From assembly GCF_028641065.1 (NCBI RefSeq), contig NC_073407.1, positions 19,034,001-19,098,000 on the forward strand: 64,000 bases of DNA, written 5' to 3'. Shown in pieces: positions 13,031 to 37,600 of this stretch (within the stretch, counting starts at the first letter, position 1; the number at the start of each line of letters is the position of its first letter). This DNA is from Leucoraja erinacea. Its lineage: Eukaryota. The translations under genes were made by a program, and so were the position numbers. A model generated the notes under the pieces. That model made no database searches and had not been told where the DNA came from. It saw only the letters and a list, made by a program, of their open reading frames with translations.

Positions 13031-13861
13031 GTGAGTTTTATTTATAGATGTATGATCAGTGAACATAGTTGATAGGCCCTATATAATAACCAAATGATCT
13101 TAAAGCTTAGATATCTAGTCTGCATTTTTTCCCCTAAAATGATCTTTTAGTACTTACCTTAAAAAATAATTTGTCTTCGATTGTATGACTAGCCTTTAGC
13201 TTTGCCTTGAGCCTGTTTCGAAAAAAATATTTTGGAGACACATTATTGATCCTTTAAAACTGCAATTGTTTTAATGTAATATATTATTGCAGGAACAGAA
13301 GTGAAGCTTGAGGACACAGGTGATCCTGTTAGTAAAATAAATCCTCGATATAATGAATCATTGGGGGGGGGATAATGCTGTCTGTTATTGGCAATTATCC
13401 GCTAGAACCGAGTAAAAGGGGTAAATATTAACTAGTTTAACCCAAGGCCAGGTGGGAAGAAACGTGGTGTCAAGGGATGTGGGGGTTAAACGAGCAGGAA
13501 TTCACAGGCCGGGGAGCCACAGAGACTCCGGCCCCACACGCACTGCGGCAGGGATGGGCCCGGTACTCACACTCCCTGCATGCTGCAATGCTCTTCAAGA
13601 GTGTTTTACTGCTCACTCTCTCCCCACTGACACCTATCCACTGCCCAACACCCACACTGCATTATAAATTTGACAAAGGTTTAATTGTTTGTGGGTGCCC
13701 AACACCCACAAACAGCCACCACGGACACAAGCCTCAATCTGCTACACCTGAAATCCATTATAAATTTGCTCATGCTCCATAATAGCTTTTGGTTAATGGA
13801 AATCTATGTTTTTAGTCTGTATTCTGCATTGAGGAATAAGCAAATGTTCCTTTCTTTGCAG

Positions 13862-13907
13862 GGTGTCAGCAGGTATCTTTGAGCCTGTTGTTATCGAGAG
13901 CCGTTGA
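13862..13907 (+). CDS. FAM102A: FAM102A/EEIG1 terminal coding exon (RVSAGIFEPVVIESR-stop)
   Basis: tttctttgcag acceptor and TGA at 13905-13907. Matches the recalled C-terminus RVSSGVYEPVVIESH. Confidence 0.92.
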
Positions 13908-16900
13908 GAAGCTTGAGAGTCATTCTGAATCTACTAACCACTTTCCATTCAAGCTCCTTGTCTACTGCACATATAATCTTCTCACCAGATCATGCCGCCC
14001 ACCTACACAGCTGGACTGGAGGAAGAGGGTGGCTGTTTCCATCCAATAGCCCCAAGTTTTGGCAGATGTTGATTCTCACTGCATTGGAGTGATAGGCAAT
14101 TGGTTTTATGTTGCAAAATTTACTGAACCAATGCTGGGATTGAATTTTAGGTAAAACACACTTTTGACTTTGAAAATTTATTTCAGAAATCCTTTTAAAC
14201 ACAATATTTAGATATCAATGCCATCTGGTTGTGATCAGTTGAAAAGGGGACAGATTTTTTATGAGATGCTGTGGCATTATTTCATGTCAGACCAGAGCGT
14301 GTATAAAAGATCTCTCTCCTGCAAAAATCTGCAGACCAAGGTTGTGAATTAAGCATGTTAGCCCATGAAACATTCTGTGATATTAAGAAAAAAAATGCTC
14401 TTAAATGTCTTTAAAGATCTTAATTGTGTTTACCGCAAACTTCAGTGCGTGGCAGGACTGCTAGTGAACAAACTAGATTGTGATTTTGATCACAAGAAAA
14501 GCACACAAGTTTTCCTATAATTTTAAGAATTCCAATACCATCATTTTTCATATCAGAACCAGGCATCTGGGAAAAATTGAGCTATGTTTCATGATAAGCA
14601 TAGCAATCCAATCCCAAATAAAACTCTGATCATTCCAATTCCAAATCAATGAGTCAACCATGACGCCATTAAGGCATGCTTACAATACTGTGAAGTCTTT
14701 GCACTGAGTATTTGAGTACCCTTTGGGTGTTGGATTTCTCCTGAAATCAAGTTATAGGATGTTACTTTGTTTTGTTCAGTCAAGATTTTATTCACGTCTC
14801 CTGATGCTTTTTATGCTCGGCAGCGACTCAGCAACTTTGTGCAGCTAATATTTCTTTTAATAATGTATGTTAAAGGAGTACATTTCTTTTTAGACAGGGA
14901 GCAAGTTCATTTATCTTAATTTTTATTTTAAATCTATGGTGCAGGGGAATAAACATGAATCGTGTGTTTTAGCCTGTACATAATGAACACTTGAAGGACA
15001 ATAGCTGGTTTGAAATGTTCAAGGAAAAAAATTACACGTAAGTGGCATCTAGTGTAATTACAATAACTTTATCAGAAAGAGTTATGGATATATTCTGCAG
15101 AGATGAGAAGTGGATCATTGAACTAGGCACCTATCCCTGATATTGGCTTTGAATTACACCCACTGTCCATAAAACTACAGGCGATCCTTGCTTTGCAGAT
15201 GTTTTCTAAAACCACATTATATTTTGAGCACAAGCTGCTGTTTTAAAATGGAGATTGTCCTCAGCCCTTTGGTAAGTGTCCTTTATTACAGGCTTTTGCT
15301 TGCTTAAAGCAAAGGTTTCTTTCCAAATGAAAATTTATTTTCCAGAATCGATTCTGGGCCTGTCAAATGAAATAAACAACCCTTTGACCCCAAGAGTTTA
15401 ACCCCAAGTTTAAGTTAGATATCTGCTGCACAGCATTAATAACTGTTTTCCTTACAACATTGCTACTGGAACACTCCATTCTTGCCAGTGCCAAGATCTA
15501 GTGATGAATATTACATGTTCCAGTTCTACTGTACATTACCCATTATCTATTGCTCATCTCTGGCTAACTGTGAGTTAAGTATTCAAATTGTCCAGAACTT
15601 GGACTTTGCAGTTCTGAGCCAGTTTGCTGCCATCAGCGTTGTTGCCTCTGATGGAACAAATTACTCCAATCATTTATGCCTAGAAGCTTTTGCTCTTTTG
15701 TGATGTCATTTTCTGCTTCTAAATATCTTGGCATTGGTTAGCTATGCACTTTGAGGATTTTAACATTTTCTGCACCATCCACGTCGTCTTGCTATTGCAT
15801 GTCACCTTTGAATATTGTGGCTTGATTGACGTACTGTGAATGGTTAACTTGTACACGATCTGTATCTGTGGTATATTGAGGCCTAGAACACAAAGCTGCA
15901 ATGAATAATGTCCTGATTTTTGTACTGTTTTAATAACTGTTCTGTAACAACTAGTATAAACAAAAACTTTAGCTTGTTATCTATGAATGCATAGTAAAAA
16001 ATAACAATTTTTACCTGCTGGGGCATATTTAGGTAACATAGGCAGCAGGTTCACAGTTGATTAAATGTACTTTCTAAGTCAGCATATTTGTTTAAATAAT
16101 CTTTTTGGAACAATAGTTTAGCCACAGCAAAGGTTCTCATAGCCGTAAAATAATGCCTATTTGGCCAGCATGCGTATATAATTAAGGTTAAAAAAAAAAT
16201 ATGGTGTCATTTGAACATGGTGTTTCTGCTGGTTGTGATGAGGAAACACAGCCACCATTTCAAGTTCCACCCCAAAAAAATTGGCTTCTAGATTTTCACA
16301 TTCCAGGGTGAGGTTGAGCATGCTTACACAAAGAGTGAAGAGTAGTAGTCATTTATTTCCATCTTCCCACAAATCTGTTACTGCTGAGATTGAGAATTGC
16401 TGTCACATGAGAGCATGTTTGTACTGTGCACCTTTAAGCCAGGAATCTTTTGGTGATTAACCAAACTTGTTGATCACAACACACTTGAGCTAATGAGCTG
16501 AATTCAATTTTGAGGCACGAGTGAAAGAAGAATCAACCACCTAAAGCTTGTGGAATGGTTTTAGGAACCCCCTTTTACTAAACAAAATTATTAAAGAAAA
16601 TGTTCATCAGTGGTTACTGGTGCATTTTGTACATCCATTTCTGTAACTTCAGGCTTTAATTGCTTCATTTAGTTCAGGTTTGTGGTTTTTTTAACAGAGA
16701 AAAGGAACAAGTTTGGTATTAGTGCCAAGGCATGTTTAGAACCCCTGTTACTTGGATGATTAAAGTGCATACTCGCAGCTATTTACCTATTTTGTACTTT
16801 GGTACTATTTGTTCTTGAGCTGACCCCGATCTCCATTGCTCCTCCTCCCCTGGTCCAAGTCCTTCCCTCCAATCCATCCACCTTGCATTTTAACATTCTC

Positions 16901-17179
16901 AGTATGCATAATTCATGATTTTAGGCTAATTGCTGCAGCAGTGGTCTGTCTGAAACTCTTGAAGGGAGGTGTTTGTATTAATCCTCCTGTTTCAAAGTAA
17001 CAACGTTCTTCCATGCCACACACAATATAGAGCAATAACTGCCACAGATGTTTAATATTACCATAAAAGTGTGTTTTACAAGTACACTCCATACTAATTA
17101 TTTTTGTGTCAGTTTTCTTTTGGGATCTGGATGATGCAGGCAAGTCCAGTAATTATTTCCTTTTATAGCTCTTCAGAAG

Positions 17180-18400
17180 CTGTTGAAGGGCAGCTGTCCT
17201 GAACAAACAATGCATCTTAGTGAAGCTATTCCCACACCGCTGTTAGTGAAGGAATCTCGGGAATTAGACCCCTCAATGATAGAACAATGACGTTTTCCCC
17301 AATCAAGAAGGTGTGTAACTTGAAGGGGAACATGCAAGTCATAGTATTGCCATGCACTTGCTGCCCTTATTCTTTTTGGTAGAGTTTGTAGATTTGGGAG
17401 ATGCAGTTGGAACAGCCAAGGCAAGTAATTGCATTGTATTTTGTAGATTGTTACACCATGCAGCCACTGTCTGCTGGTAGCAAAATAATATTAAGGATGG
17501 AGGATAGGTTATGAATCAATGGATGGTGTTGAACTTGCAAGTTGTTGGATCTGCCCTCCTGTAAAGGAGAGTATTCCATCTATGTGCCTTGTTGATGGTG
17601 GAAAGGCTTTGGATTATCAGAAAATGGATAATTTGCTGCAGAATATCCAGCATCTGACCAGCTCTTGTGGCCTCAGATTTTATGTTGCTGGGCCAGTTGC
17701 TTTTCTGGTCATTGGTGATTTGGAAGATGTTGGCGGTAGAGGACTCAGTGAATATAATGCCCATGAATGTTAAGGAGAAATGGTTAGACTCCCTTGTCGT
17801 AGGTCACTGCAATGTGAAACATGAATGTTACTCGCCACTTATCAGTCCATGTCTGAATGTTATCTAGGTCTTAACTGTGTGTGTGTTTAATTTGCTGGTC
17901 ATGAATGAAAAGGGACATTTTGCAGTCATCAGCAAACATCGCCGCTTCCTTCTTTATAATGGAAAGAAGGCCATTGATAAAACAGCTAAAAATTTGCGGG
18001 CCTAGAACATGGCTCTATGGAGTGTAGCGATGCCCTGAACTTCACCAACCACAACCATCTTCCTTGATGCAGGGTATCACTCCATCCATTGGAGTTCTTT
18101 TTCTTCCTTGGCGTCATGCACTTCAGTTATACTAGGTTCCCTTGATGTTACATTTGGTAACATGTAACAATGTTAGGGCAGTTGCTCTCACTTATGGAAT
18201 TCAACTGTGGTGGCCATGCTACAATTTAATAGCCAAGTAGTCCTGGTGAAATGCAACCTGGCCATTGGTGTGCATATTATTGGTAAGTGAATACCTCTTG
18301 ATAGCATCATCGTCAACATCTTCCATCACTGTGTTGTTGATTAAGAGTAGACAGATTGTGTGATAAATTGCCAGATTGGAATTCTCCATATGTTGTCAAC
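17180..18400 (-). mobile_element. Highly degenerate antisense LINE (CR1/L2 group) remnant
   Basis: RT-like remnants on the minus strand (e.g. tcagcaaacat, FAD-like). Boundaries are approximate. Confidence 0.45.
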
Positions 18401-21400
18401 AGGATCTGGGAAATGTTACCAGATAAATGCCTGTGTCGTGACAGTTCTGATGGGCGTGAAGTGCAGCCAGCTTATAAATGTATGTTCAATAAAAGCTCTA
18501 GATTTGATACCCAATATTTTCTTCTGACAAAATTATAGTGAAAAAAATTTAATTGTGCATCAAATAAAAAATAGTTAAATACTTTTAAATAGTTAACTAC
18601 TGGTAGTTATTTGTTTTCTTTAAGTTTTACTTGTTCAAGGTGGTCACCAGCATCAACATTTGTTCTATTTTACAATGCTTGTCCACAAAATGGCCAGCAA
18701 TTTCAAACCGATTATTTCAGGATTTGATCTCTCTACCATTGAAGTTATTGCATTGTGACACATGTCTAGATATAAATGTTAAACTAAGTTCTAAGTTTTT
18801 AAAATACCTTTTGAATGTTGGATCAGGATCCTACAGTACACATTGGACAGGCAAACTGTTATTATACCTTATAAAATAGAAAATCTTTTGTGTAACTCCT
18901 TATGCACCAAAGTAATCACTTGAGTAAGTATGTGTGTTTACCTAATATACAACCCTTTCCCAGTGGATTATTTTATTAAGACTTAATCAGTTAATTAACT
19001 TAATAAACTTTTTGGGTGATATTGAAATCCAAATATTTTCCGCATTAAAAACACCCACAAATCAAAGTTTCAAATTAGCAAACTTATATTGTGTTTCAAT
19101 CACACGGAATATTGGAGATTAAGGTGTTCTGTTAATCAAAGTTTAAAGTAAATTATTTTCAAATGAAACATTTTTTTTCAAGCACTTTTTCTTGTTCTAC
19201 TTCCTGTTTTCGGAGGTAGGATCACAAATTAATGTAGGGCTCGCTGAATGAGGTAACTTTAATTTGTACAGTTTGAATGCATAAATTCCAAACTACATTG
19301 TCACTCACTTTACACAACAAAGTGCTGAAGGAACTCAGCAGGTCAGGCAGCATCTGAAGAGGGAATGGACAGACAATGTTTCAAGTCGGTTCTCTGCTTC
19401 AGACCCGAACTGATATGTCATCTGTCTGCTCCCTGGCCCACTGAGTTCCTCCAACATTTTGTGTTTTACTCAAGATTCCAGCATCTGCAGTTCCTCGTGT
19501 CTCCTTGTCACTGACTGAGCTCTGCTTATTCTGTGGCTTGACATTGCTTATAAAATACCCAATTATATTCAACCAAAGCAAACTATGGATAGCTGATGTG
19601 ATCAAACAACATTGTTTCATCAAATGTAGTTTTGAGTCTTTTGAATATATATCTTTGAACCCTCCTAGCCTTTTCATTCCTTTTTTTTCCTGGTTTGGTT
19701 TTGTTTCTTGATTGAGGAGCTGGTGGATGAGGTTTTTCCCTTCCTTCATCTTCCTCTATGCCATAGTATCATTGAAGTATTAAGCCACCTCCAAGATCAT
19801 TTTGTAAGTGATCACGTAAACTAGGGATTAAGAAGGGCAGATCTAAAATGCAGTCGCCACAATGGAAATTGCATTTACTTACAATACTACATAATAACCA
19901 TAACTTTAAAGGGAAGGCAGGACATTTTGATTAGAATAATGCAAGGCATCGGGTTTCTTGTTAATGAAGGGACTGTAATGCACCAACAAATGTGAGTTCC
20001 AAAAGACCACTATTGACTTGAAGAAACTTTGCTTTTGTAGGGTATGGCCTGAGTTTGCTTTATTCAGTCCATGATTAAGATACTGTATTAGCTATTCATC
20101 CATTTTAGAGCTCAGGTATACTACTTTACCAACTTATTTTTGCCAATCAACGTTGATGACTTTTTTCTTAATTAACTGTTAAGTGATTGCTTTTGTTTGT
20201 GAAACTGTCCAATTTTGACCACTGTTGTAGGAACTCTTTTTTTAAAAAAAGATGTTTCTGAGAAGTGTTTTTGCCATGTATCGCAGTACTTGCAACTAGC
20301 AGGCTAGTTGTGTTGTTTTCTTTTGCCATGATGAGTGGATTGCCCAAAATCACGGCACCACCCATCTATGTGTATGAAATTTAAAAAATGTTTAAACATT
20401 GCATTTAAGTGTTGATTATGTTTCTAATTTTCTTTTATAAAAAGTCAGCTTTTTGTTAGTATTACAGTGAATTGAGAACTGTTGTGACTTCCTCTGATTA
20501 AAAGATTTGGATAGTGGAGTGCCATCTAGCCACACTGATGAAGCCTGTCTCTGGCTAGACAGGATATTGATGAATTGTTCAGAAGCTGTTCTGGCCTATA
20601 TTAATTACCTTGGTATATTCCCAGCAGTCAGCAAAATATAAAAAAAATATTTCAAAGGTTTTATAGACCACCTTAAGATATTGCAGCAACATTTGACACA
20701 ATTGATTAAAGTCAGTGTTGGTTGCAGTTAATTGCACTAGTTGTACAACGCCTTCCATGGTTGGTTTGATGATGAATCAATCGAAGCTATTGTGCACTGT
20801 CCAGTCTTAAATCATTTGTTGTATATTCTAATGTGGATTGAGACGGGATGGGTAGTTGAAAAGAATGAGATTTAAATAATAAATCCAAATCTAACTTAAA
20901 GCCATAACCCCTTTTGATTCTGAAATGTTCCCATACCTCCACTTGTTCTTTCCCTCTTTGAAGATGGGCTGCAATGATGAATGGATAGCAAGGTTATGAT
21001 GTTTCATGTCACATAATAAATAGTTGTCTATCTATAATGCATCCCAGTATTTTCTACTTGAATCTTTTCCAAATGATTAAAAGCTAAGAACAAGAAGTGA
21101 CCATACTTCATACTAAACGCAGAACACAAAATACTGGAGTAACTCAACAGGTCAGGCAGCAACTCTGGAGGACATGGATAAGTGAAGTTTTGGGTCAGGA
21201 CCATATTTCAGTTTGGGACCCTTCTTCAGTTAGCTAAACGTTGACTATCCATGACCTCCAGAGATGCTGCCTGACCCACTGAGTTACTTTAGTACTGTCT
21301 TCTGCACAAGATTCCAGCATCTGCAGTATATTGTGCTTCATAATAAAGATTTATTTTAATTGCAATTTGTTTCAAACTAATTTATGCAACTCGTGTTGCT

Positions 21401-23741
21401 AATTGTGTGCTGGTGGGAGGGAGATGTTTTGAACTGAGATTCTACGTTTCTTTAGCAAATAAACAATTAAAGTAATTGGAAGTAGAGGAAAGAATATTTA
21501 ATTGTTAAGGGACTTGAGTTAAATTTCCTGTGCATTTTTTTGTAAATCAAATGCAGCTAAATCCATTCAAGCTTCAGAGTTAACTGAGAACTCACCAGCT
21601 AATAGCTGTAAAATGGCTTGGTTCACATGCGTTCCACTTTCAGAATGAGAAGGAAGTAAAGGAAGAATTGAAATCTACTGTGCGCTTCATGAATCATTGC
21701 TATCTGTTTTCTGGAGGCTTCATAGTTCTTTAAAGGCGTAGAATAAGTTTACTGATTACTTCACAAATTGTGCTGTGACTGTTTTGTTTCCAAAGCTGGT
21801 TATGCAGTGTACTGCTTTATATTGATCATCTAAACATTATTAGTTACTTCCCCGGTAAATTTAACTTGTTCCTGAATTTTCTCAAGGTTTGTTTGTGGCA
21901 TTTCTATACTACATGGAAAAGGGGTGGGGTCGTTTGCTAATTCTAAAAGTAATTACTAGCAATCGATCTTAAAATTTGCCTGCTTTCAAATGTCATGTAT
22001 GTTTTTAACTCTTTTTATTCATTAAATGCCAACCCTAAATGGACAGCTGAATGTGACCTTTAACTGGATAGCACGTTAAATAGACTGAAATAAATTACTT
22101 TTATCAACCTCTTTTAATCAGCTCTTTGTTGAGGCCAAATAATGTGTGGCTAACTGGCACTCCACTTGTCGTAAGCAATTTTGTATGTTTCTGAAGGGGA
22201 TTTGAAGCTATGCATTGGGAGTCCAGGCTCTTCAATAGATGGATTTAACATTTTCTGAAATGACCTAACTGTCAACTAAAGTTGAATAATGACAAAATAT
22301 TTTTATGATTTTGTTAATAAAAAGTGGAATAGAATGTATTCAAAATGATATACAGTATTTAGACACTTATTTTTGTGATTCAATGGAGGTTGGTGTACAG
22401 GTTTCTTAAGTGCCCAGAGGATGTGGAATTTATAGAAATGTTTATCAGCTGAAATATTGTATAACATTTAAATATGTTTAGAATGCACAATGGTTAAAGA
22501 AAATTGTATTAAGGTTATTTGTTTCATATTTTAAAATGTAACTATAGGACAGTATCATGTAATACTGTGTTTTCTGGGAAATGATATTGGGTACCTGTAT
22601 TAACAATAAAAGCTGTTATTTTGTGTTTAGCATAAAGAGTTTTTATTTTATGAACAATGTAAAATATGGGTTTTCATTGCACTCTACCCAATTTGAGTGA
22701 TGTGCAAAGTGGGTATATTAAGGAATAATTATTGTTTCACTACTTCCTTGGCTCCTGTTATGGTTCTGCAGACCTATTCACTTGCCTAAATGGTCAACTC
22801 TCACGCAAGACAACATGGTCTGAATTGGCAGTATGCTCATCTGCTGGATGGCATCACAGGTCACTTGTTACCATCGTAACAACAGAGGACCTTGGAGAGG
22901 TTCCTACACTAACTCCAACTATTTCCGTATTTTTGAAACTTAATGACAGTTGTTAGCTCATAACATTGTCTGCAAATGGCAAATTCAGCATACATGAGGG
23001 AGTTGATTCCTTAAAGTATAGCTTTGAACATATCAGGTTATACATTCAACCCTTTGAGGCACTGATAGTGTTCAACAAATAACTAGACAGTGAATACTTT
23101 CAAAAGTTTTTAAGAAGCTCCAAACATATCATAGAATATTACAGCTTTAGAGCACATTCAGTGTGCCATGACCACACTATAAAGCTACAGTAAAGCTAGC
23201 CAATTTGTAATCCTTCAAAGATCTTGCCCATCCAGTAACATTTCAAAGGATTGTAGAAATAATATGAATTTGAAAATAAAAATTCCTGAACAGCCATTTT
23301 TTGAATGTATTCACTGGGTCATTCATTCAGGGTTCTGGATCATCAATTGATTAAAATAGTAATTGTACTCTCAAATTCTTACAACACATTGGATGAATTT
23401 CTATCATTGATTTGTGAATTCATAAGCAATAAATATTCTACTCCCAACCTCGTGTTAAAATGTTTAACTCCCAAAGTGTTGGTTTTAACAAGAAGTCCCC
23501 GGAAACCATTTGCCAGAACCTCAGCACAAAGATTTTGGAAATAATTGATGCACCATCATGAGTTATTTTGCTTTAAATCTATGGGGAAATATGCTTTAGT
23601 TTGCCTTTCAAAGCTGTTGAGCTAATTTCTATAAAATAACACCACATTTTAAATACATTCGATCTGAATAAGGAAGGAAAAATGAAATCTGAATGTTTTG
23701 CAGCAAATACTGTGTGTGTGTGTATTGCAGATCAAAAGAAG

Positions 23742-23890
23742 CTAATCTGGTATATTGCTTAATCGGTTATGTCTCTGTCTTGTGCTCTTTCTTCTTTTCA
23801 CACACGCAAAGCACAAGCTTAACCAGATGTTTTCCTTGGGAATAATTTCGATGCCATTCGGAGTTCTGACTGGATCGAATGCACACAAGC
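23742..23890 (-). CDS. CD-M6PR/ATG27-like protein, terminal coding exon (GLCAFDPVRTPNGIEIIPKENIWLSLCFACVKRRK...NIPD-stop)
   Basis: ttttctcag acceptor, in frame with exon 2. Carries the G-x-E-x-x-P-x4-W tail motif as in CD-MPR (GMEQFPHLAFW). The spliced CDS is 795 nt, or 264 aa. Confidence 0.82.
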
Positions 23891-24589
23891 CTGAGAAAAT
23901 AACCAGAGAGACTTCAGATTCCTCACTTCCATGTTGCCATAAACAAATAGTTATTTGATGGTTCAAGGGATTTAGCAGCTTAAGGGATCATGTGCACCAA
24001 AAAAACTATATTGTTTGTAGTATCTTGTTAGCAACAAGGTCCAACAGCATTTAAAATGAATCAGAATGGCTTAAGGTATGTTATGTTCCTTAAGCCAAAA
24101 TAGAGATAACTTAATTGGTTTGAAACATGATAAATTGCCAAATTATCTGTTTTAGTGGAGGGATAAATATCAGTCTGGACAACAAACATGTTCCTGCACT
24201 TATTTGAATTGGTTAAACGGCTCGGACCATTCAACACTATTTCAGTACACTGAGCTGTCACCCACCCCACTCCCCACCGCCGAATGAGTCTTCACTTTAC
24301 CAAGGCAGTATATTAATTGATAATTGTAATCATGCTTCATCTTATGCTTATTGATCTATAATGTTTTGTGGTACCAAAATACCTTACTTTAAGTTCTTGG
24401 GTTTAAATCATTTGCCGATCTTCCCCTTCCACCGCATATCTCTCTCAACACGTGAAATTCCACTATAAAGTTATGTTTGGCTGCTTGTAAATTAACCCCG
24501 CCCCACCACTGTCCCATCCTTGACCCGCAACTGATGCTGTCCCTTCTATCGTCCACTGTTCCCTTTAATGTAAAGCAAGTTTACAGGGC

Positions 24590-24850
24590 TTGTAGAAATA
24601 AGCCCTTTGGCCCATTGAGTCCACGCTGACCATCAATCACCCATTCACACTAGTTCTATGTTATCCCACTTTCTCATCCACTCACTTCACACGGAGGGCA
24701 ATTTACAGAGGCCGATTAAACTACAGTTCAGCGTGTCTTTGGGAGGAAACCGGATCACCCAGAGGAAACAAGCTGTCACAGGAAGAATGTGCATACTCCA
24801 CACAGACTGCATCTGAGGTCAGGATCTAACCCAGGTCTCTAACCAGCTGT
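24590..24850 (-). mobile_element. HE1-type V-SINE (older copy) in the MRH-gene intron
   Basis: Similar to 45084-45380. Confidence 0.7.
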
Positions 24851-25088
24851 CAACATCTCAAATCGTATTAATAATCGAGATCCCATGCTTTGCAGTTCCT
24901 TTGTAACGTTTTTGCACCTCTACTCCTTTAGCCCTTCCTTGAACATCACTAAAAGTTTTGATTTAACTTTTGGTCACCCCCTCTGCTTTTCCTTAATTTT
25001 TCTCCTGTAGTTTTGATGATTTTTGTGAATCGCATTAGGACCTCTATGTTTAAAAATGCTGCTTGAATGAAAGCTACCATTAACCCAC

Positions 25089-25304
25089 CAAACAAGAAGT
25101 AGGCTGTAATAGTTATGCTGAACACCACTAAGATGATGGTTCCTGGACCCACATCGGTAGGCTTGCAGCTGTTGGGGCAGGCACAAGGGCTATCGATAGA
25201 AATCCATAACACATCGGGATTCTCTGGTTCTTGAGAGGGAGTCACTGAGCGACTGGAGCTGCAAATGTATCGAACCACTGTCTGCCGTGAACTGCTGGGT
25301 GATG
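25089..25304 (-). CDS. CD-M6PR/ATG27-like protein, coding exon 2 (ASPSSSRQTVVRYIC...IDSPCACPNSC...GTIILVVFSITITAYFLF; end of luminal domain plus TM helix)
   Basis: ccttacag acceptor and G|gtgggt donor; 216 nt, phase 1 to 1. The DSxxAC motif followed by a TM helix resembles CD-MPR/ATG27. Confidence 0.85.
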
Positions 25305-25370
25305 CTGTAAGGTATAAAGAGAATTAAAACTATGCACTGCAAGTAAGCAAAGCAACAAAAATAATTTACA

Positions 25371-25564
25371 AGGTACACAAAAATGCTGGAGAAACTCAGC
25401 GGGTGCAGCAGCATCTATGGAGCGAAGGAAATAGGTGATGTTTCGGGCCGAAACCCTTCTTCAGACCTATTTCCTTCGCTCCTTAGATGCTGCTGCACCC
25501 GCTGAGTTTCTCCAGCATTTTTGTGTACCTTCGATCTTCCAGCATCTGCAGTTCCTTGTTGAAC
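25371..25564. mobile_element. Palindromic Penelope-related short element with central hammerhead core
   Basis: 66-bp inverted arms 25371-25436 and 25465-25530 (1 mismatch) around the core 25437-25464. TSD aaaataatttaca at 25358-25370 and 25565-25577. Confidence 0.8.
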
Positions 25565-25630
25565 AAAATAATTTACAGTTGTTGGTACCTTTTGATCGGT
25601 GAAATAAGCCAAAACACTTCAAACATTAAA

Positions 25631-25930
25631 GCTCTCTTATACCTGCATTTAGGAGGCAATTAAACACACCTGAGCAATTACAAACGGCTGTGAAGCCATG
25701 TGTCCCAAACATTATGGTGCCCTGAAATGGGGGGGGGGGGGGGGGACTATGTATAAACACAGCTGTAATTTCTACATGGTGAAACCAAAATGTATAAAAA
25801 TATTAAAATCTGACAATGTACACTTCTACCACATGTGATTTTTTTTTTCTATTACAAATCTCAAATTGTGGTGTACAGAGGCAAATAAATAAATGATGGG
25901 TCTTTGTCCCAAACATTATGGAGGGCACTG
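25631..25930 (-). mobile_element. Solo terminal fragment (one TIR) of the same Tc1 family
   Basis: Closely matches 36724-37030. Confidence 0.9.
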
Positions 25931-26766
25931 TGTATTTAACAGGCAAAGGCACTTCACAGTAGAGTTATCAAACACAATTTGACAACAAGTTACACTAGAA
26001 ACAGTTTGTCGTAGCTTATTTGATGTGGTAGGTTTTAAACTCGAGAGTCAGAAATTTGAGGGAATTTTCTACTTGGGGGGGGGGGGAGTGTTAGCTTTGT
26101 GTTGTTGCTGATACAAGAGATGCTATAATCTTGGCATATTTCATTTAATTCCTCCCAGGCTGCACTTGCCCTCCTTTCATATTTCTTCAATGCATAATAA
26201 ATGTTTACACGAGCACAAATTCCCTTAAGTCTGAAGAAAGGTCCTGATCTGAGACATCACCCATCTATGTTCTGATGTTGCCTGGCCTGCTGAGTTACTC
26301 CAGCACTTTGTGACTTTTTTTTGTAAATCAGCATCTATATTTCCTTGTTTGTGCAAACCTCTTCAGTTTTTTATATGGTCTCTTAAACTTGACTAATACT
26401 TGACCCAAATACAAAGTGTTGTGGGAACTTGGTGGGTCAGGTAGCATCTGTGGAGGGAATGGCAGACAACGTTGCAGGTCCGGATGCCCCTTCAGATTGG
26501 TGAGGAGCCCTGACCTGAAATATCGCCTGTCCGTTCCCTCCACAGATGCTGCCCGACTGACTGAGATCCCCCATCACTTTGTGTTTCACTCACGATTCCA
26601 ACATTTGCAGTTCCTTGTGTCCCCATTTAACTAATACCTGTTGATGTTAGAACATTAGGAACAAGAACAGACCCACAAGCTCCATCCATCCAGCTTTACA
26701 AGTTTAGTTTTCAAAACTTATTCATGGATCCTTCACATAAAATGTTTAAAAATTGAGAAATCTTAC

Positions 26767-27196
26767 CTGAATAGGTGACAGTGAGAATTTTTGACTTGTT
26801 ATCATAATTGAACTCATTCAGCTTGTGCCTCCCATAGTTGTGAAAATTCACATTCTCTCTCCCTTGGGCTTGGTATCTGAAGATCAGGCAAACAGCCACA
26901 TCCGAACAGTCAGAAGCAAACATGAAAGGTTCACTAAATGGACGACAAGGGCTAAATGAGTAAAGAATATTAAGATCAGAATCCCCAGGCGAACTAGTTG
27001 TAAGAGATTTATCCCTTGCCAGAAATCCATTATCGTCACCCACTGCTGCTAGATTAATTACTCCTGATCCATCCTTCATTATGCATTTGCAGGAATTCAG
27101 CTTAATGCATTCTGATCTCTGGGAGAAAGAGGGAGAAGACTGTAATATCAGCAGCAAGTATAGCCAGCTGAAAGTCCCAACCCCTGTACTCTGCAT
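26767..27196 (-). CDS. Uncharacterised CD-M6PR/ATG27-like (MRH-domain) type I membrane protein, coding exon 1 (signal peptide plus N-terminal luminal domain)
   Basis: ATG at 27196 (the ORF track start at 27223 is a TTG). Hydrophobic signal peptide followed by Cys-rich CIKLNSCKC...YSFSPC...AVC. G|gtaaga donor at 26766, phase 1. Confidence 0.85.
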
Positions 27197-30259: not shown

Positions 30260-30640
30260 GTGGTGGGGGGGGGGAGGGGAGGCTGGGCCATGACATCAGC
30301 TGCATTCCAGGGGCTGAGCCACGTCACCAGCTGCTCGCTGTCATTACCACAGTCCGCCAGCAGTGGGCGCTGTGGGACGCGCATGCGCTCTGTCCGGCTC
30401 CGGCGGGTGAAGGAATGGCTGAGCGGGCGAGCCCGGGCAGTCTGGGTGATTATACACCGGCCCGCTGACTGTACCACGTGATGCGGGGCTGACTGACTGA
30501 GGGGCCAAACTGGAAGCTTCTCCCGGAAGCTGCCGGGCGGGAGCGGGAGGCGCGGCCCACGTGACCCGGAAGTTGACGGCTCGCTGCGCAAGGTGGTGAC
30601 CATGGTGAGTGAGAGGCGCTCAGACCGGCGGCGACTCCAG
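30260..30640. promoter_or_regulatory. CpG-island promoter of DPM2 (possibly bidirectional)
   Basis: CpG-rich stretch in AT-rich DNA. NRF1 palindrome GCGCATGCGC 30379-30388; ETS/GABP CCGGAAGC 30523-30530 and CCGGAAGT 30566-30573; CACGTG E-boxes at 30475 and 30558; CCACGTCA 30319-30326. Confidence 0.8.
30602..30604 (+). CDS. DPM2: DPM2 coding exon 1 (ATG only)
   Basis: gaccATG|gtgagt in the CpG island: good Kozak context, canonical donor, and in frame with exon 2. Confidence 0.85.
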
Positions 30641-30649
30641 TCCCATCTC

Positions 30650-31515
30650 CCATCTCCCAACCCCAGCCCCTGCTCCAGCTCCAGTCCCCAGCCCCAGTCC
30701 CCAGCCCCCAGTCCCCAGCTTCAGCTCCAGCCTACACCTGGCCCCCAGCCCCAGTCCCCCAGTCCCAGCCCCAGCCCCAGTCCCCAGCCCCAGCCCCAGC
30801 CCCAGCTCCCAACCCCCAGCCCCTGCTCCAGCTCCAGTCCCCAGCTCCCAGTCTCCAGTCCCCAGTCCCAGCCCCCAGCTTCAGCCCCAGTCCCGGCTCC
30901 AGCCCCAGCCCAGCCCCCCGGCCCCCAGTCCCCAGCTCCAGCCTCCAGCCCCCCCCCCAGTCCCCCCAGCCCCCAGTCCCAGTCCCCAGTCCCCAGCCCC
31001 AGTCCCCAGCCTCCAGCCCCAGTTCCCCCAGTCCCCAGCCCCCAGCCCCCAGTCCCCAGCCCCAGTCCCCAGCCCCAGTCCCCCCCCAGCCTCCAGTCCC
31101 CAGTCCCCAGCCCCAGTCCCCCAGTCCCCAGCCTCCAGCCCCCAGTCCCCAGCCCCAGTCCCCAGTCCCCAGCCTCCAGCCCCCAGTCCCCAGCCCCAGT
31201 CCCCCAGTCCCCCCAGTCCCCAGCCCCCAGTCCCCCCAGCCCCAGTCCCAGCCCCCAGCCCCCTCCCCAGTCCCAGCCCCAGCCCCCAGCCCCCCCCCCC
31301 AGCCCCCCCAGCTCCAGTCCCCCCCCAGTCCCCAGTCCCCCAGTCCCCCCCCAGGCCCCAGTCCCCACCCCCCCCAGTCCCCAGTCCCCCCCAGTCCCCA
31401 GTCCCCAGCCCCAGTCCCCAGTCCCCAGCCCCTAGTCCCCAGTCCCCAGTCTCCCAGCCCCAGCCCCCCCAGCCCCCAGCTCCAGCTCCAGCCTACACCT
31501 GGCCCCCAGCCCACG
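30650..31515. repeat. C-rich degenerate (CCCCAG/CCCCAGT)n tandem array at the start of DPM2 intron 1
   Basis: About 860 bp of imperfect 6-7-mers. A 30-nt direct repeat cagctccagcctacacctggcccccagccc occurs at 30722-30751 and 31483-31512. Confidence 0.95.
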
Positions 31516-32161
31516 GTCCACACCCGGCCCGAACCCACACCCTCTCCTCCCCCGGACCGCCCGCCCCCCACAGTGATTTGCTCAGTCTGATTCCGACCTG
31601 AGCAAGCGACGCCGTGGAAGATGAGTCCGTCCGTCGTTCAGTCCGCCAGGCAGTCCCCGCCCTTTTCACACATTACATGCTCTGTACCCATCCGGTATCT
31701 CTAGTCTCTTTTCTCCTGACCCTCGGTCTGAAGAAGGGTCTCAGCAGGAAGAAACAGTGTCACACTAAAACATGGGATGAATTCATCCAGATCTGAAGAA
31801 GGGTCTCGACCCGAAATGTGACCCATTCCTTCTCTCCAGAGATGCTGCCTGTCCCGCTTAGTTACTCCCAGCATTTTGTGTCTACGGTTTAAACCAGTCT
31901 CTGCAATTCCTTCCTCCACAGTCCCCCCCCCCCCCCCCCCCCCCCCGGTCTACATCCCCCTCACCCCCTGGTCAACACCCTACCCCCTACCCCACACCGA
32001 AGGTAAACACAAAATGCTGGAGTAACTCAGCGGGCCAGGCAGCATCTCTGGGGAGAAGGAATGGGTGGTGTTTCGGGTCGAGACCCATCTTCAGACTGAG
32101 AGTCAGGGGGAAGGGAGACTTGAGATATGGAAGGGTAAGGTGCAAAAACTACAGATCAAAC

Positions 32162-32890
32162 CTTGTGGGGCCCGTGTGTCGCTCACTACCATGTCCGAGA
32201 CACAATTCTGTAGCCTGACAAATTGTGGTCGTCCAATCAAATAGTTACTGATCCAGGACACCAATGGAACATCCACACACATCTTTGTCAGTTTGCTCCC
32301 TAGCAGTGCAGGCCGGATGGTGTTAAAAGCACTAGAGAAGTAAAAAAAAAAAACATTACTCTCACAGTGCTTCCCAGCTTATCCAGGTAAGCATAGGAAC
32401 GGTGGAGCAGGTCGATGATGGTGCCCTCAACCCCCATCTTTGTTTGGTAAACGAACTGCAGGGGGTCCAGGTCTGGTTTAACCAAGGGTTGTAGGTGAGT
32501 GAGCACCAGCCTCTCCAGTGACTTCATGATGTGTGAAGTCGGCACCACCAGTCTATAGTCATTGGAGGAGCTGGGACGTGTCCTCTTTGGTACAGGAACC
32601 AGGCAGGATGTCTTCCATATCACAGGAACCCTCTCCAGGCTCAGGATGAAGATATGCTGGTGTACTCCGCACAACTGGCTGGCACACGCCTTGATTATCC
32701 TAGGGCTGACATCATCGGGACCCATGGCTTTGCCTGGGCGGTGTCTGCTCAGCTCTTTCCTCGTCTGCTCAGCCTTGATGGTCAGGTGCAACAAATAAAG
32801 GGCAGAGGAAGTGGACCCTTTGGATTGGGGGGAGAGTGATTCTTGATGATATTTCCAGCCTTCCTGATACAATTCCCTGTTCCCCCCCCC
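32162..32890 (-). mobile_element. Rex1/Babar-type LINE RT fragment in DPM2 intron 1
   Basis: KAMGPDDV...WKTSCLVPVPK...NDYRLV...MKSLERLV...LDPLQF...VRVMFF remnant. Confidence 0.85.
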
Positions 32891-33239
32891 TTATCCATAA
32901 TGTCTGTGATGCCCTCTGTCACTTTGACAGTTAGTGCCTTTTTGCCAACTGTCTCATCTTTACTATGGACTTCATTTCCATCTATACTTCCGTCCACACT
33001 AGAATGGCCTGAGGAGCTTTCACTTTCTCCTTTAACGGTTAATCCAGCTTCCCTCCAAGATTATCCTCATTTGTGTAACTGAGCTAATTTTTACATTCAA
33101 CAGCTTCTTCAATTCATTCGTTTTCTGTGTATCAAAGGTGTAGCAGTGTGAATCTGCTTGGTCTGTAGATAAATGGATCATAGATACAGCAAATAAGCTG
33201 CCCTCCCCCCCTACCCCCCCTTGTCCTTGCCAATCATCA

Positions 33240-33495
33240 AGCACCCATTGTTACACTAATCCCATTTTACTTTCCCCACGTTCCCATTAACTCTCCACAG
33301 ATTCTACCACAAGCTAGGGGCAATTTGATGGCCAATTAATTTAGCAACACATTTGGGATGTAGGGAAAATTGAGGCACTCAAAAAAAACCCATGCAGTAC
33401 GGGGAAAATGTGCAAATTCCACACACAGAGCTCCAGAGGTCAGGATTGAGTTTGTGTTACTCGTGCTGTGAGGCAGCAATTCTACTTGCTGCACC
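33240..33495 (-). mobile_element. HE1-type V-SINE (degenerate)
   Basis: ggccaattaa...gtgcaaattccacac...gaggtcaggattga remnants. Confidence 0.6.
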
Positions 33496-33925
33496 ATTAT
33501 TTTAAAATGTGACTATTCAATTACAATATTCATACTTAACACTGTGACAGAGCTTGCTTGATATTTCTATGAAGTGCCTCGGAATATTTTATCGCCAATA
33601 AATTTGAGGTATAAAGATTAGCAAATGGGGAAAAAAAATCCAGAAAAATTGTCAAGTCAATCTAACTCAGTGTTTTTAATATATCTAACTGAGTTATATA
33701 AAGAGTCAGAGAGGAAATGGCAAAGATTAGAAGGCATAGGGAATGTTTAAAGGAGATGTGCAAGACAATTTTTATTTTGTGGGTGCTTGGCACGCGCTGC
33801 GAAGGGTGATGGTGGAGGCAGATACGATAGTGACATTTCAGAGGCTTTTAGACAGGCACATGGATATGCAGGGAATGAAGGGCTATGAATCACATGCAGA
33901 CAGAGATGAGATTAGTTTACCTTGG

Positions 33926-34383
33926 TATACCGCCGGCCCGCGGCCAACTTCTACCGTGGGCGCGGCATGGACTTACTATCACCCCTGGAGGGGAGCTTTG
34001 ACCGCCGGCCCTGCAGTCTGCAGTGCTTCTGGCTGCGGCGCGGCGGGAACTTTAAATCTTCGACCGCCGGCCTGCGGCCTACACCATCCTGAAGCCGCGG
34101 TCTCCGGTGGGGAAGAGCCGATCCTGGACTTACCTTGACTTTGTCTCTTACCATCTGGACGCCCGCAGCAACAGCTGCGGAGATGGAGGTCCCGACCACG
34201 GGGGAAAATGGAGGAGGACTGGCCAATTTCTGTGCCTTCCACTACGGTGATGAATGCTGTGGTGGATGTTTGTGTAAATTTTTTATTGTGGTGGTGTGTT
34301 CTTTATTATTGTACCGCTGCTGGCAAATTCATTTCTCTTGCACTTTATGTGCAATGTGACGAATAAAACTGATTGATTGATTG
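33926..34383 (+). mobile_element. GC-rich SINE-like or non-autonomous insert with (TGAT)n tail, interrupting a CR1 3' fragment
   Basis: CpG-rich body with internal repeats, ending aataaaactgattgattgattga. CR1 3' sequence lies on both sides. Confidence 0.55.
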
Positions 34384-35004
34384 ATGTCCAGCATAGACAT
34401 TGTGGACTGAAGAGCTTGTTGTGCTGTACAGTTCTGTGTCTTAAACTGGACAGTGAATAATGTTGTGCAACTGGGACAGATTGCCACATCGGCAGCAATT
34501 ATCAGTGAGCCCACGGAGGCTGTTGCAGGAAATCAGAATGTCAAAGAGTGAAATGGTCTACACCATGAGGTGTTTCTATAGGTGCATCCATTCTGTGTTT
34601 TATTAGAAACCAGGAATGCTCAATGCATATTCAAGCAAATGTTCATTTGCAAGACCCCTCTTCTTCCATTAAAAAATATCTAAACTAAATTTGAAGGAAT
34701 TGATTCTGTATTACACTTGTGAGTAATCCCTCCAGTTAGGGTATTGCATATTAGATGCACTTTTTGTTTGAATACATGGCCAGCGGGCTGTTGATAACAC
34801 ATGTGTAAAATGTTGTGTATTTTATTGCACTAAGGCTGTGACATTTGGAGCAGTCAGTGAGTTTGCTGGAAAGTTACATGTCCCTCTGAAGAAGCCGATA
34901 CTTGTGTAGGCATTGACTTGACTTTGACAACTATGTAGTGCAGCAGAGATGACAGAACTATGTTTGTCTTGTTTACCAAATTTCTCTCTTTCTCTCCCTC
35001 TCAG

Positions 35005-35094
35005 GCTACAGGAGTAGACCAACTAGTCGGGATGGGACTAGTGGGCTTCAGCTTGCTACTTTTCTCGTACTACACTATATGGGTCATTGTGTTG
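35005..35094 (+). CDS. DPM2: DPM2 exon 2 ([30 protein letters not shown])
   Basis: Long polypyrimidine tract plus cag acceptor, and gtgagt donor. Matches recalled DPM2 [30 protein letters not shown]. Confidence 0.95.
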
Positions 35095-35221
35095 GTGAGT
35101 ATCGATTTTTAAAATGTAGATGTATTAACTTAAGTAATGTTGACATAATGCTTATATTACTGATTTAGTCATCCAAATACACAAATTAATCCTTATTTAC
35201 TCTCGGGATATGGGTGTTGCT

Positions 35222-35355
35222 TCTTCTTTCGTGTGGCGTGCACAGCTTAAAGTTGTAGGACAACTTGTTCTATTTGATCTTGCGTTTGTACACATCAAGT
35301 TGATTGCATTAGTCGAAACAGGGTGGACCACGTGAAGGTTGCAATCTTCCACCCC
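35222..35355 (-). mobile_element. Short non-autonomous retroposon headed by the HDV-like ribozyme, with (GAA)n tail
   Basis: 12-bp TSD atgggtgttgct at 35210-35221 and 35356-35367. The 3' end reads GAAAGAAGAA on the minus strand. Internal hairpin AAGTTGT-CCT-ACAACTT. Confidence 0.8.
35302..35355 (-). ncRNA. Minimal HDV/CPEB3-like self-cleaving ribozyme fold (54 nt)
   Basis: Minus strand reads GGGGUGG AA GAUUGCA ACC UUCACGU GGU CCACCCU GUUUCGA CUAA UGCAAUC. P1 is 7 bp with a G1.U wobble, P2 is 7 bp, P3 is 3 bp, L3 is UUCACGU, and J4/2 CUAA places the candidate catalytic C at 35312. Confidence 0.85.
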
Positions 35356-35422
35356 ATGGGTGTTGCTAACCCACATTTACCCATACCGAGTTATTGTCTT
35401 TCTGTACGTGATTTAGAAACTA

Positions 35423-37030
35423 CAGTGCCCTCCGTAATGTTTGGGACAAAGACCCATCAATTATTTATTTGTACAATTTGAGATTTGTAATTTAAAAAAA
35501 TCATATGTGGTTAAAGTGCACGTTGTCAGAATTTAATAAAGGCCATTTTTATACATTTTGCTTTCACCATGTAGAAATTAAAGCAGCGTTGAAACATAGT
35601 CTCCTATTTCAGGGCACTATAATATTTGGGTTACAGCAATGTCATGTAAATGAAAGTAATCATGTTTAATATTTTGTTGCATATCCTTTGCATGCATTGA
35701 CTGCTTGAAGTCTGCGATTCATGGACATCACCAGCTGCTGGGTGCCTTCTCTGGTGATGCTCTGCCAGGCCTGTATTGCAGCCATCGTTAGCTTATGCTT
35801 GGTTTGAGGGGCTCATTCCCTTCAGTTTTCTCTTCAGCATATAAAAGGCATGCTCAATTGGTTCAGATCGTGTGATTGACTTGGCCATTCAAGAATTGAG
35901 CATTTTTTAGTTTTGAAAAACTCCTTTGTTGCTTTAGCAGTATGTTTGGGATCATTGTCATTGCCGGCCAATGAGTTTTGAGGCATTTGTTTGAACTTGA
36001 GCAGATAGGATGTGTCTTCTTCAGAATTCATTATGCTCCATCAGCAGTTGTATCATCAATGACGATAAGTGAGCCAGTACCTTCAGCAGCCACACATATC
36101 CAGGCCATAACACCCCCACCACCATGTTTCACAGATGAGGTGGTATGCTTTGGATCTTGGGCAGTTCCTTCTCTCCTCCATACTTTGCTCTTGCCATCAC
36201 TCTGATATAAGTTAATCTTCGTCTCATCTGTCCGCAAGAATCTGTGATTCTCTGTGGTTGCTCTTTTAAGTACTTCTTGGCAAACTGTAATCTGGATATC
36301 TTATTTTTGCAGCTAACCAATGGTTTGCATCTTGCAGTAAAGGCTTTGTATTTCTGTTCATAAAGTCTTCTGCAGACAGTGGTCATTGACAAATCCACAC
36401 CTGACTCCCGAAGAGTGTTTCTGGTCTGTCGGACAGGTATTTTTTCTTTATTATAGAGAGAATTCTTCTATCGTCAGCTGTGGAGATCTTTCTTGGCCTG
36501 CCAGTCCCTTTGCGATTAGTAAGCTCACCAATGCTCTCTTCTTAATGATGTTCCAAACAGTTGATTTTGGTAAGCCTAAGGTTTGGCTGATGTCTCTAAC
36601 TGTTTTATTCTTGTTTGTCAGTTTCATAATGGTTTTTTTGACTTTCATTGGCACAACTTTGGTCCTCATGTTGATAAACAGCAATAAAAGTTTCCAAAGG
36701 TGATGGAAAGACTAGGTGCTGAGAGCTCTGTTATATCTGCATTAAGGAGGCAATTCAACACACCTGAGCAATTCCAAAGACCTGTGAAGCCGTGTGTCCC
36801 AAACATTATGGTGCCCTGAAATGGGGGGGGGGGGGGGGGGACTATGTATAAACACAGCTGTAATTTCTACATGGTGAAATCAAAATGTATAAAAATACCC
36901 TTTAATAAAATCTGACAATGTGCACTTTAACCACATGTGATTTTTTTTCTGTTACAAATCTCAAATTGTGGAGTACAGAGGCAAATAACTAAATGATGGA
37001 TCTTTGTCCCAAACATTACGGAGAGGGCTG
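35423..37030 (-). mobile_element. Tc1/mariner (IR/DR-type) DNA transposon with defective transposase in DPM2 intron 2
   Basis: TA-flanked ~210-bp TIRs (cagtgccctccgtaatgtttgggacaaa) with internal direct repeats. HTH ISQTLGLPKSTVWNII, TDETKI, DNDPKH and WPSQSxDLN are split by frameshifts. Confidence 0.95.
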
Positions 37031-37497
37031 TAGTCCACATGGCAGTCAAGAGTACGTTGTGCAGCATGAATGGATGAAAATGGCAGACTTCTTCCCCATT
37101 GTGCTTCCGTAACAATCCAACACGTTTGTGTATAATTTACCAATGCCATTTTTTATTTTTCAAACATTACAACCTATTTTTTAATTTATTTGCATTGCAG
37201 TTATTCACTCAAGGCAAAAGGAAATTATGTTGATTGTATGCCCACTTTTCATATCCTCAGAACTTCACGAAATATTCCACTGCTATTTATCAAGCACATA
37301 GATTATTGGAATACACAAATCAAAAATCCTTAGAAATAATCAGGAAATAATATCAGACACGAGTAATTTGAGGCTCTGACCTAAGAATAATAATTTTGTT
37401 GTGCCTGTTTCTCCCCTTTCAGAGATCTGCTCCAAATGACTTTTCGCACTTTATCTTACTTTAAACCTGCTGATCAAATTAATTATTGTGTTTGCAG

Positions 37498-37600
37498 CCA
37501 TTTGTGGATGGTAGACATATTCTTCACAGCTATTTCTTGCCACGAGAATATGCCGTGATCTTGCCCGCTGTTGCTGGTCTGCTCCTGGTTTTATTAGTGG
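37498..37600 (+). CDS. DPM2: DPM2 exon 3 ([35 protein letters not shown])
   Basis: tttgcag acceptor, gtaagt donor, and the YFLPRxYA motif of DPM2. Confidence 0.95.

Follow-up and report, generated by a model that had tools for sequence, protein, structure and literature searches.

At positions 23742 to 27196 of a 64,000-nucleotide stretch of the skate Leucoraja erinacea genome (contig NC_073407.1, positions 19,034,001 to 19,098,000; hereafter the window), the minus strand carries an unnamed gene whose product is built like a mannose-6-phosphate (M6P) receptor, which raises the question of whether it is a sugar-binding receptor at all and, if not, what it might bind. Vertebrates have been described as having two P-type lectins (PMC7481795; this and the other papers cited here were available as extracts and are cited for what those extracts say). 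The protein considered here is a third receptor-shaped protein with a single M6P receptor homology (MRH) domain, found in jawed vertebrates as far as marsupials and unnamed in every database record that we saw. It is a conserved jawed-vertebrate type I membrane glycoprotein that comes from an old animal family of ATG27/MPR-like receptors. We hold it to be nearly certain that this is a real, conserved MRH membrane protein without the canonical sugar site, a conclusion firmer than any of the mechanisms proposed below. An automated gene model and an ATG27 domain call were already public; the clade-wide loss of the site, the distribution of the gene and its ancestry are new.

The gene is laid out as follows (residue numbers are those of the skate protein; the sequencing runs X1, X3 and X23 are described further on):

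26767..27196, minus strand: coding exon 1 (430 nt; codons 1-143 plus 1 nt), encoding a putative signal peptide (about residues 1-25) and the N-terminal half of the MRH domain, with L104 at the Gln site (26885-26887), R107, H124 and the sequon residue N133
25305..26766, minus strand: intron 1 (phase 1, GT-AG), with many dispersed repeats
25089..25304, minus strand: coding exon 2 (216 nt), encoding the C-terminal MRH strands, a CxCPxxC clamp and the transmembrane helix (about 197-216), with R150 at the Arg site (25285-25287), E171, and L176 at the Tyr site (25207-25209)
23891..25088, minus strand: intron 2 (phase 1, GT-AG)
23742..23890, minus strand: coding exon 3 (149 nt), encoding the cytosolic tail with C218 and G228-x4-P233-x4-W238, then a predicted helix with C242 and C245, a basic stretch and the stop codon
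23426..23741, minus strand: probable 3′ untranslated region (UTR), lower bound approximate, marked by contigs of X1 (23426-23637) and X3 (23441-23891) and by low minus-strand signal in X23

As the preliminary description of this DNA had proposed, splicing is canonical and phase-compatible (donor CAG/GTAAGA and acceptor TACAG for intron 1; donor TTG/GTGGGT and acceptor TCTCAG for intron 2), and the three exons total 795 nt, giving 264 amino acids and a stop. The motifs quoted in that description were all found in place: the protein has 10 luminal Cys residues, a single sequon (N133-K-S), one hydrophobic segment by hydropathy (about 197-216), and a tail with a basic stretch and Cys residues at 218, 242 and 245; modest hydropathy and a predicted helix at 8-19 point to the signal peptide. 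Within the 64-kb window, tblastn matched the three exons only. The protein matches RefSeq XP_055516149.1 (L. erinacea, uncharacterised LOC129712034) at all 264 residues, so the gene model was already publicly annotated but carries no name, in agreement with the earlier statement that the gene is uncharacterised; XP_032904610.1 of Amblyraja radiata differs from it by one residue. A search of the open literature, including six LOC identifiers, returned no account of the gene; subscription journals and supplementary tables, which often hold LOC identifiers, lay outside that search. Within intron 1, a repeat-derived cassette (25670-25721, minus strand) matches the 17-residue insert of Amblyraja isoform X1 (P0015); its AG-to-GT piece is 52 nt long in skate and would shift the frame, and two further copies of the element lie in the window.

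MRH domains are flattened, nine-stranded β-barrels of about 150 residues with conserved disulfides. An AlphaFold2 model built on an 89-row alignment (mean pLDDT 86) has an all-β luminal domain, a transmembrane helix at 197-218 and a tail made up of a hairpin and a helix. The best Foldseek matches were CI-MPR domain 8 (E 1.6e-5) and CD-MPR (E 8.4e-5). The wide structural search with VIA returned 2v5o (IGF2R domains 11-14) at Z 13.2 (root-mean-square deviation 2.6, 128 residues aligned), CD-MPR at Z 10.7 (3.3, 126 residues aligned), and GNPTG, OS-9 and glucosidase II β at Z 7-8; all 21 chains with Z of at least 5 are MRH proteins, and unrelated folds reach Z 4.6 at most. The suspected MRH fold is thus borne out, with Z of 10-13 to CI-MPR and CD-MPR domains. 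The 89-sequence profile matches CI-MPR in the PDB at E 3e-73, a 10-sequence vertebrate profile found no match in the PDB, and single exons gave nothing above a Pfam cut-off and no PDB match. The best-scoring Pfam family is ATG27 (PF09451; 30.6 bits against a cut-off of 27), confirming the likeness to ATG27 that had been proposed; three of seven orthologues tested also pass, and 85 of 89 alignment members match the family. For Man-6-P_recep (PF02157), by contrast, the Amblyraja protein reaches 18.4 bits against a cut-off of 25.4, with a weak match over the transmembrane segment and tail (E 0.0012), and none of the seven orthologues passes. An ESM Atlas feature search returned ATG27/M6PR clusters only. 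Taken together, the predicted model, the fold searches and the profile place the protein in the MRH superfamily, and hydropathy and the model, with the putative signal peptide, give it the type I topology with a single MRH domain that CD-MPR has. CD-MPR homodimerises through its luminal domain (PMC7481795); a homodimer prediction for two copies of residues 27-193 scored 0.08 against a mark of 0.32, made no use of the alignment and counts neither way.

The side chains of a Gln, an Arg, a Glu and a Tyr have been described as required for the sugar site of MRH lectins (PMC9388126). We set the register of these sites by profile alignment to CI-MPR, placing Gln at C103+1, Arg at C158-8, Glu at about C186-15 and Tyr at C186-10. 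Applied by eye to the lectin domains 3 and 5 of CI-MPR, this rule recovers their Gln, Arg and Tyr, and it fits the structural end points (model residue 187 corresponds to residue 432 of 1q25 and residue 154 of 3k41). In skate the four sites hold L104, R150, E171 and L176, and the replacements of Gln and Tyr by Leu that had been proposed from manual alignment hold when CI-MPR domain 3 sets the register. Of 188 matches to a 24-row profile, the best 120 were listed; the vertebrate set of 124 rows (95 of them teleost) consisted of 118 of these, two swapped for better isoforms, and four others, and dropping seven rows without an anchor Cys left 117 to be scored. Gln occurs at its site in none of them (Leu 79, Val 33, Phe 2, Ile 2, Met 1), nor does Tyr (Leu in 112), and both are also absent from all 29 rows of the non-teleost subset. 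Arg is found in two rows, skate and bilby, the bilby residue owing its place to a two-residue gap that shifts the register; Pro (69), Leu (22) and Ala (12) are common there, and all eight non-skate cartilaginous fishes have Leu. R150, previously counted as kept, is therefore no retained lectin residue. E171, previously called probably kept, is in register in skate, but a Glu within four positions of its place is found in only 16 of the 117 rows. The Gln-Arg-Glu-Tyr quartet that serves as the P-type lectin signature is thus missing from the clade (0, 2, 16 and 0 of 117, respectively). These counts indicate that the sugar site has been lost clade-wide and is not half-altered, and, because of the published need for those residues, the protein would be expected to bind neither mannose nor M6P.

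Homologues were found in sharks, rays, chimaera, bichirs, gar, bowfin, paddlefish, many teleosts including zebrafish (LOC110440004), frogs including Xenopus (LOC116406742 and LOC108704496), and marsupials. A bilby query gave 17 matches, namely seven entries of six marsupial species followed by frogs and fishes, so that the earlier suggestion of a possible loss in mammals is wrong as it stood. No placental, monotreme, bird, reptile, lungfish, coelacanth, salamander or cyclostome sequence was among the best 120 of the 188 profile matches (a word-based search), and this absence among the matches listed suggests loss in placentals, birds and reptiles. Database clusters with near full-length members number more than 100 and range from chimaera to marsupials, about 70 positions are conserved at 85% or more across vertebrate members, and the skate lumen is 43-49% identical to that of frogs and ray-finned fishes. 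The branch leading to the marsupial proteins (P0039, P0183-P0188) is long (1.24); the DGSG motif and the GFL loop have been lost from them, and a tammar isoform (P0187) is missing about 22 residues of the MRH domain. Two cyprinoid orthologues (P0176, P0230) are automatically named 'ZP domain-containing protein' in UniRef, a name against which the MRH fold speaks.

A deeper search gave 447 matches, the best 150 of which were listed, and ran on into single- and multi-domain proteins of invertebrate type; among those listed, the closest non-vertebrate single-domain relatives reach E 1e-30. A tail of CD-MPR type was seen in none of 291 proteins, including these best 150 matches. We used 75 non-vertebrate-type rows, eight of them named (three amphioxus, Lingula, Ruditapes, Babylonia, Oedothorax and Oscarella). 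In a quick maximum-likelihood tree of 92 rows, made without CD-MPR sequences, all 17 vertebrate rows fall into a single clade (SH-aLRT 100) on a stem of 1.42, with an amphioxus protein as its weakly supported sister (SH-aLRT 90). In this tree the vertebrate clade is nested among invertebrate ATG27-like proteins, and the search results, with no CD-MPR-type tail among the 291 proteins, suggest that it is nearer to that old family than to CD-MPR. The label of P-type-lectin-like paralogue in the preliminary description is borne out as to the build of an MRH receptor, and the closer relatives appear to be ATG27-like proteins, not CD-MPR. The sugar site has been removed throughout the vertebrate clade while invertebrate relatives often keep its residues: among 74 scorable non-vertebrate-type rows, Gln is present in 38, Arg in 38, Tyr in 47 and all three in 27, and the amphioxus sister protein has Met, Arg and Val at these sites. 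Since the three residues are often kept in the wider family and all but absent in vertebrates, the site was present in that family and was lost on or before the vertebrate stem. Some invertebrate proteins (P0044, P0045, P0073, P0074, P0080) are tandem arrays of 2-5 MRH units, several repeats of which appear to keep Gln, Arg and Tyr. Amphioxus has tandem-MRH forms with a transmembrane segment and a C-terminal tyrosine motif, possibly an independent route to a multi-domain MPR.

What the vertebrate clade has in place of the site is a set of residues of its own. F58, L59, R107, H124, N127, H155, L176, C218, E234, C239 and C242 are nearly fixed in vertebrates and rare in other rows (H124 100% against 4%, R107 94% against 4%, N127 92% against 1%, F58 93% against 0% and C242 98% against 0%); position 155 is Arg in skate and nearly always His in the other vertebrate rows. 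A sequon lies in the 130-138 loop in 119 of 123 vertebrate rows.

In the CD-MPR tail, a Phe-Trp pair and palmitoylated Cys residues have roles. The tails were counted in the 118 vertebrate rows that carry the anchoring Gly and Trp. G228, P233 and W238 are nearly invariant in vertebrate and other rows alike, and the invertebrate ATG27-like proteins, both single- and multi-MRH (amphioxus, brachiopod, molluscs, spider, sponge), share with the clade this G-x4-P-x4-W tail, the Cys scaffold and the DGSG motif. They differ in often having the Gln, Arg and Tyr of the sugar site (27 of 74), a Phe before the Trp (62 of 74, against 3 of 118 vertebrate tails) and a C-terminal YxxPhi (65 of 74), all of which the vertebrate clade has replaced, while it has gained a WCxxC cluster (110 of 118 tails). 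The sorting signals of MPR tails are of the YxxPhi, dileucine and DxxLL types (PMC5297682). Among the vertebrate tails counted, DxxLL and [DE]xxxL[LI] each occur once, and a distal YxxPhi occurs in 42, none of them in the eight cartilaginous fishes; the skate tail, on inspection, contains neither a DxxLL nor a Tyr. The earlier claim that there is no DxxLL or tyrosine sorting motif therefore holds for skate and the cartilaginous fishes, but not for the family as a whole. Of the features of the CD-MPR tail, then, skate lacks DxxLL and YxxPhi, keeps the Trp, has lost the Phe, and has a Cys cluster that may be acylated.

What, then, does the protein bind? The sugar-gripping residues are missing in fish, frog and marsupial versions, so the protein probably binds a protein partner instead. 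The reading that we prefer, and to which we give about an even chance, is that the protein is a receptor or escort that recognises a protein ligand through a non-lectin MRH domain, has an acylated tail lying close against the membrane, and travels by a route other than that of CD-MPR. The MRH domain would have been kept as a protein-binding module and would capture a secreted or membrane protein in the Golgi or endosome lumen or at the cell surface, by way of the clade-specific invariant residues G57-F58-L59, R107, H124, N127, Y131 and H155, with the histidines permitting ligand release at acid pH. The tail helix may lie on the membrane, S-acylated at the Cys cluster. Since its tail lacks a GGA-type DxxLL, a Phe-Trp pair and, as in the other cartilaginous fishes, a YxxPhi, the skate protein would not be expected to cycle by the CD-MPR route; it would sit at the surface or in the Golgi, or travel with a partner.

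There are precedents for MRH domains that do not serve as lectins. Drosophila LERP and the Trichomonas MPR-like proteins are MRH receptors without most of the M6P-binding residues (PMC8717582), although they have five MRH domains and YxxPhi or dileucine motifs, whereas the skate protein has one domain and neither motif. Domain 11 of CI-MPR (IGF2R) binds IGF2 in a hydrophobic pocket formed by Tyr1542, Phe1567 and Leu1629 (PMC6949491). The non-lectin domains of CI-MPR have the same fold as the skate protein (Z 10.0-13.2), and domain 11, like the skate protein, is hydrophobic at the Gln and Tyr sites (Phe and Leu, by eye). However, the skate protein is single-domain, 12-18% identical, aliphatic and not aromatic at these two sites, and without a match for the aromatic pocket residues of domain 11. 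The same aliphatic trend is seen in CI-MPR domains that do not bind IGF2, and since other non-lectin domains show similar replacements, the likeness to domain 11 is not specific. We have downgraded the idea of a specific domain 11 mimic, CI-MPR domains 1, 2, 4 and 13 also being hydrophobic at the Gln site (by eye). A bolder extension, which we regard as a long shot, would make the protein a third vertebrate MPR-type receptor for a protein ligand such as a peptide of the insulin/IGF family or lysosomal enzymes whose sorting does not need M6P; its sugar pocket would have turned hydrophobic independently, as in IGF2R domain 11, and the receptor, retained in lineages from sharks to marsupials, would have disappeared in placentals when another receptor assumed its job.

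Several points weigh against the protein-ligand reading. Teleosts dominate the vertebrate set (95 of 124 rows), and in about 10 of the 29 non-teleost rows an Arg lies one residue later (C158-7), from where it could reach the site. Orthologues differ in the length and sequence of the loops round the canonical pocket, which may therefore be no more than filled in. CI-MPR domains without a known ligand often have aliphatic residues at these sites too (domains 2 and 4, by eye), a pattern that says 'not a lectin' and is no proof of a protein binder, and the YxxPhi of 42 vertebrate tails implies that the sorting route may differ between lineages. Lastly, the MRH domain of yeast Atg27 is dispensable for autophagy, and its tail does the binding, to Atg9, in whose vesicles Atg27 is found (bioRxiv 10.1101/2025.11.06.685569). 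This last point also speaks for an account that we think unlikely, in which the protein is a tail-driven trafficking accessory like Atg27, its MRH domain a stable spacer and its transmembrane helix and acylated tail the parts that partner another membrane protein. The two proteins share the same architecture, ATG27 is the best Pfam family and above its cut-off, G228, P233 and W238 of the tail hardly vary, and among cartilaginous fishes the transmembrane segment and tail (72-85% identity) are better conserved than the lumen (60-67%). The ATG27 family is broad, however, matching 85 of 89 alignment members, and implies neither orthology nor a role with Atg9. Moreover, between skate and bony fishes, frogs and marsupials it is the lumen (39-49%) that exceeds the tail (28-38%), and the polar luminal residues H124, R107 and N127 are fixed in the vertebrate clade only.

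A lectin with changed specificity, its site rebuilt for a non-mannose glycan or glycolipid through R107, H124, N127, E128 or the Arg at C158-7, is decidedly unlikely. Descent from relatives that often keep Gln, Arg and Tyr, the existence of conserved polar and basic residues, and the tuning of MRH specificity by loops (PMC9388126) favour it, but in nearly every member aliphatic residues or Pro occupy all three of the strand positions that form hydrogen bonds with the sugar. The disulfide between loops C and D of CI-MPR domain 3 also has no counterpart. To our knowledge, no MRH domain binds sugar without the Gln, Arg, Glu and Tyr. That the gene is a decaying or dispensable relic, with little function and drifting to loss, is very improbable: the long stem (1.42) and marsupial (1.24) branches, the lack of placentals, birds and reptiles among the matches listed and the low read depth are as this account would have it, but it is at odds with the near full-length members in more than 100 clusters, the roughly 70 positions conserved at 85% or more and the sequon kept in the same loop in 119 of 123 rows. 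We find it extremely doubtful that the gene is a duplicate of CD-MPR whose mannose site is half kept (Arg and Glu) and which a shared promoter ties to DPM2, the divergent neighbouring gene. The skate protein does resemble CD-MPR in its putative signal peptide, single MRH domain, one transmembrane helix, short tail, fold (Z 10.7) and weak Man-6-P_recep match over transmembrane segment and tail, Arg150 and Glu171 are in register, and a GC-rich stretch near 30,000-30,600 lies between the divergent genes. Unlike CD-MPR, it has no Gln or Tyr at the sugar site, no conserved Arg, no DxxLL and no Phe-Trp, and has extra N-terminal CxxxxxCxC and C-terminal CxCPxxC cysteines; its Man-6-P_recep score is below the cut-off, invertebrate ATG27-like proteins outrank CD-MPR among the best 150 of the 447 deep-search matches listed, and the counts for Arg (2 of 117 overall, and Leu in all eight non-skate cartilaginous fishes) largely refute a half-kept site. 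As to DPM2, 3.4 kb separate the two ATGs, and no start common to both genes was observed.

If the protein-ligand reading is right and a protein cargo is bound, the gene would offer a way into the study of sorting that does not depend on M6P, or of growth-factor clearance, in animals other than placental mammals. Since zebrafish and Xenopus carry the gene, its function is directly testable.

Evidence for the transcript comes from four sequencing runs mapped on 20000-30625 at 88% likeness; of the runs listed as carrying the gene, none is on record as RNA. X1 is of a kind guessed as RNA, X3 comes from a relative and is flagged 'probably DNA', and X23 is a stranded polyA run of a relative, about 6% of which was read. 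One X1 contig matches, with one mismatch, from 26953 down to 26767 and then continues for 109 unmatched nt, breaking exactly at the exon 1 donor. In X3, the match of one contig ends at 26766 with 36 unmatched nt beyond, another covers 25088-25304 (exon 2) followed by 41 unmatched nt, and a third spans exon 3 and the 3′ region (23441-23891); a fourth (23862-24660) runs unspliced into intron 2, at a depth of 15 against 38-46 on exons. X23 covers exons 2-3 and the 3′ UTR at a depth of 0.4-1.3, with the polarity expected of minus-strand RNA, and has no coverage over exon 1. Repeats dominated the mapping, and the two splice joints are absent from the 15 joints listed (885 others being unlisted). 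Thus, of the support from RNA sequencing named earlier as a check on the junctions, contig breaks at the exon edges were found but no junction reads among the listed joints, and splicing is backed by the contig break points.

Two genes flank the MRH gene in the window:

30602..38419 (end approximate), plus strand: DPM2, divergent, with an ATG-only first exon (ATG/GT) at 30602-30604, exons at 35005-35094 and 37498-37600 that match PF07297, and a candidate last exon from 38366
12960..22630, plus strand: a convergent neighbour taken as FAM102A, with its last coding exons near 12960-13025 and 13860-13907 and transcript signal to about 22630

DPM2 is confirmed by PF07297, which is above its cut-off for two exons. 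The left-hand gene we take to be FAM102A from its motifs; Pfam, run on two stretches of it, gave no match. A human genome-wide association variant has been described as mapping between DPM2 and FAM102A at 9q34.11 (PMC7955727), consistent with the adjacency of both genes in human given in the preliminary description, and the passages available from a paper on the meagre genome treat fam102a synteny and do not mention the MRH gene (PMC9871315). The head-to-head arrangement with DPM2 given in the preliminary description is correct as to orientation, but only loosely so given the distance between the ATGs, and we rejected a functional link of the MRH gene to DPM2 as unsupported. Plus-strand signal at 20000-22630 suggests that the presumed FAM102A has a 3′ UTR of up to about 8.7 kb (13907-22630, of which 20000-22630 was mapped), which would leave about 800 bp between it and the 3′ end of the convergent MRH gene. 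The beginning of DPM2 intron 1 holds a C-rich tandem array of 830 bp (30661-31493) with 13-mer and 7-mer periods (about 63 and about 116 copies), whose long open frames, Pro/Ser/Gln-rich or Gly/Trp-rich, are probably spurious. Elsewhere in the window, fragments that we take, from their motifs, to be LINE reverse transcriptase and endonuclease lie at 6950-9890, 47770-49570 and 63400-63680 on the plus strand and at 32100-32890 on the minus strand, with a 532-residue open stretch at 8292-9887 among them, and what are presumably broken Tc1/mariner-like transposase fragments lie at 36034-36711 on the minus strand, in DPM2 intron 2.

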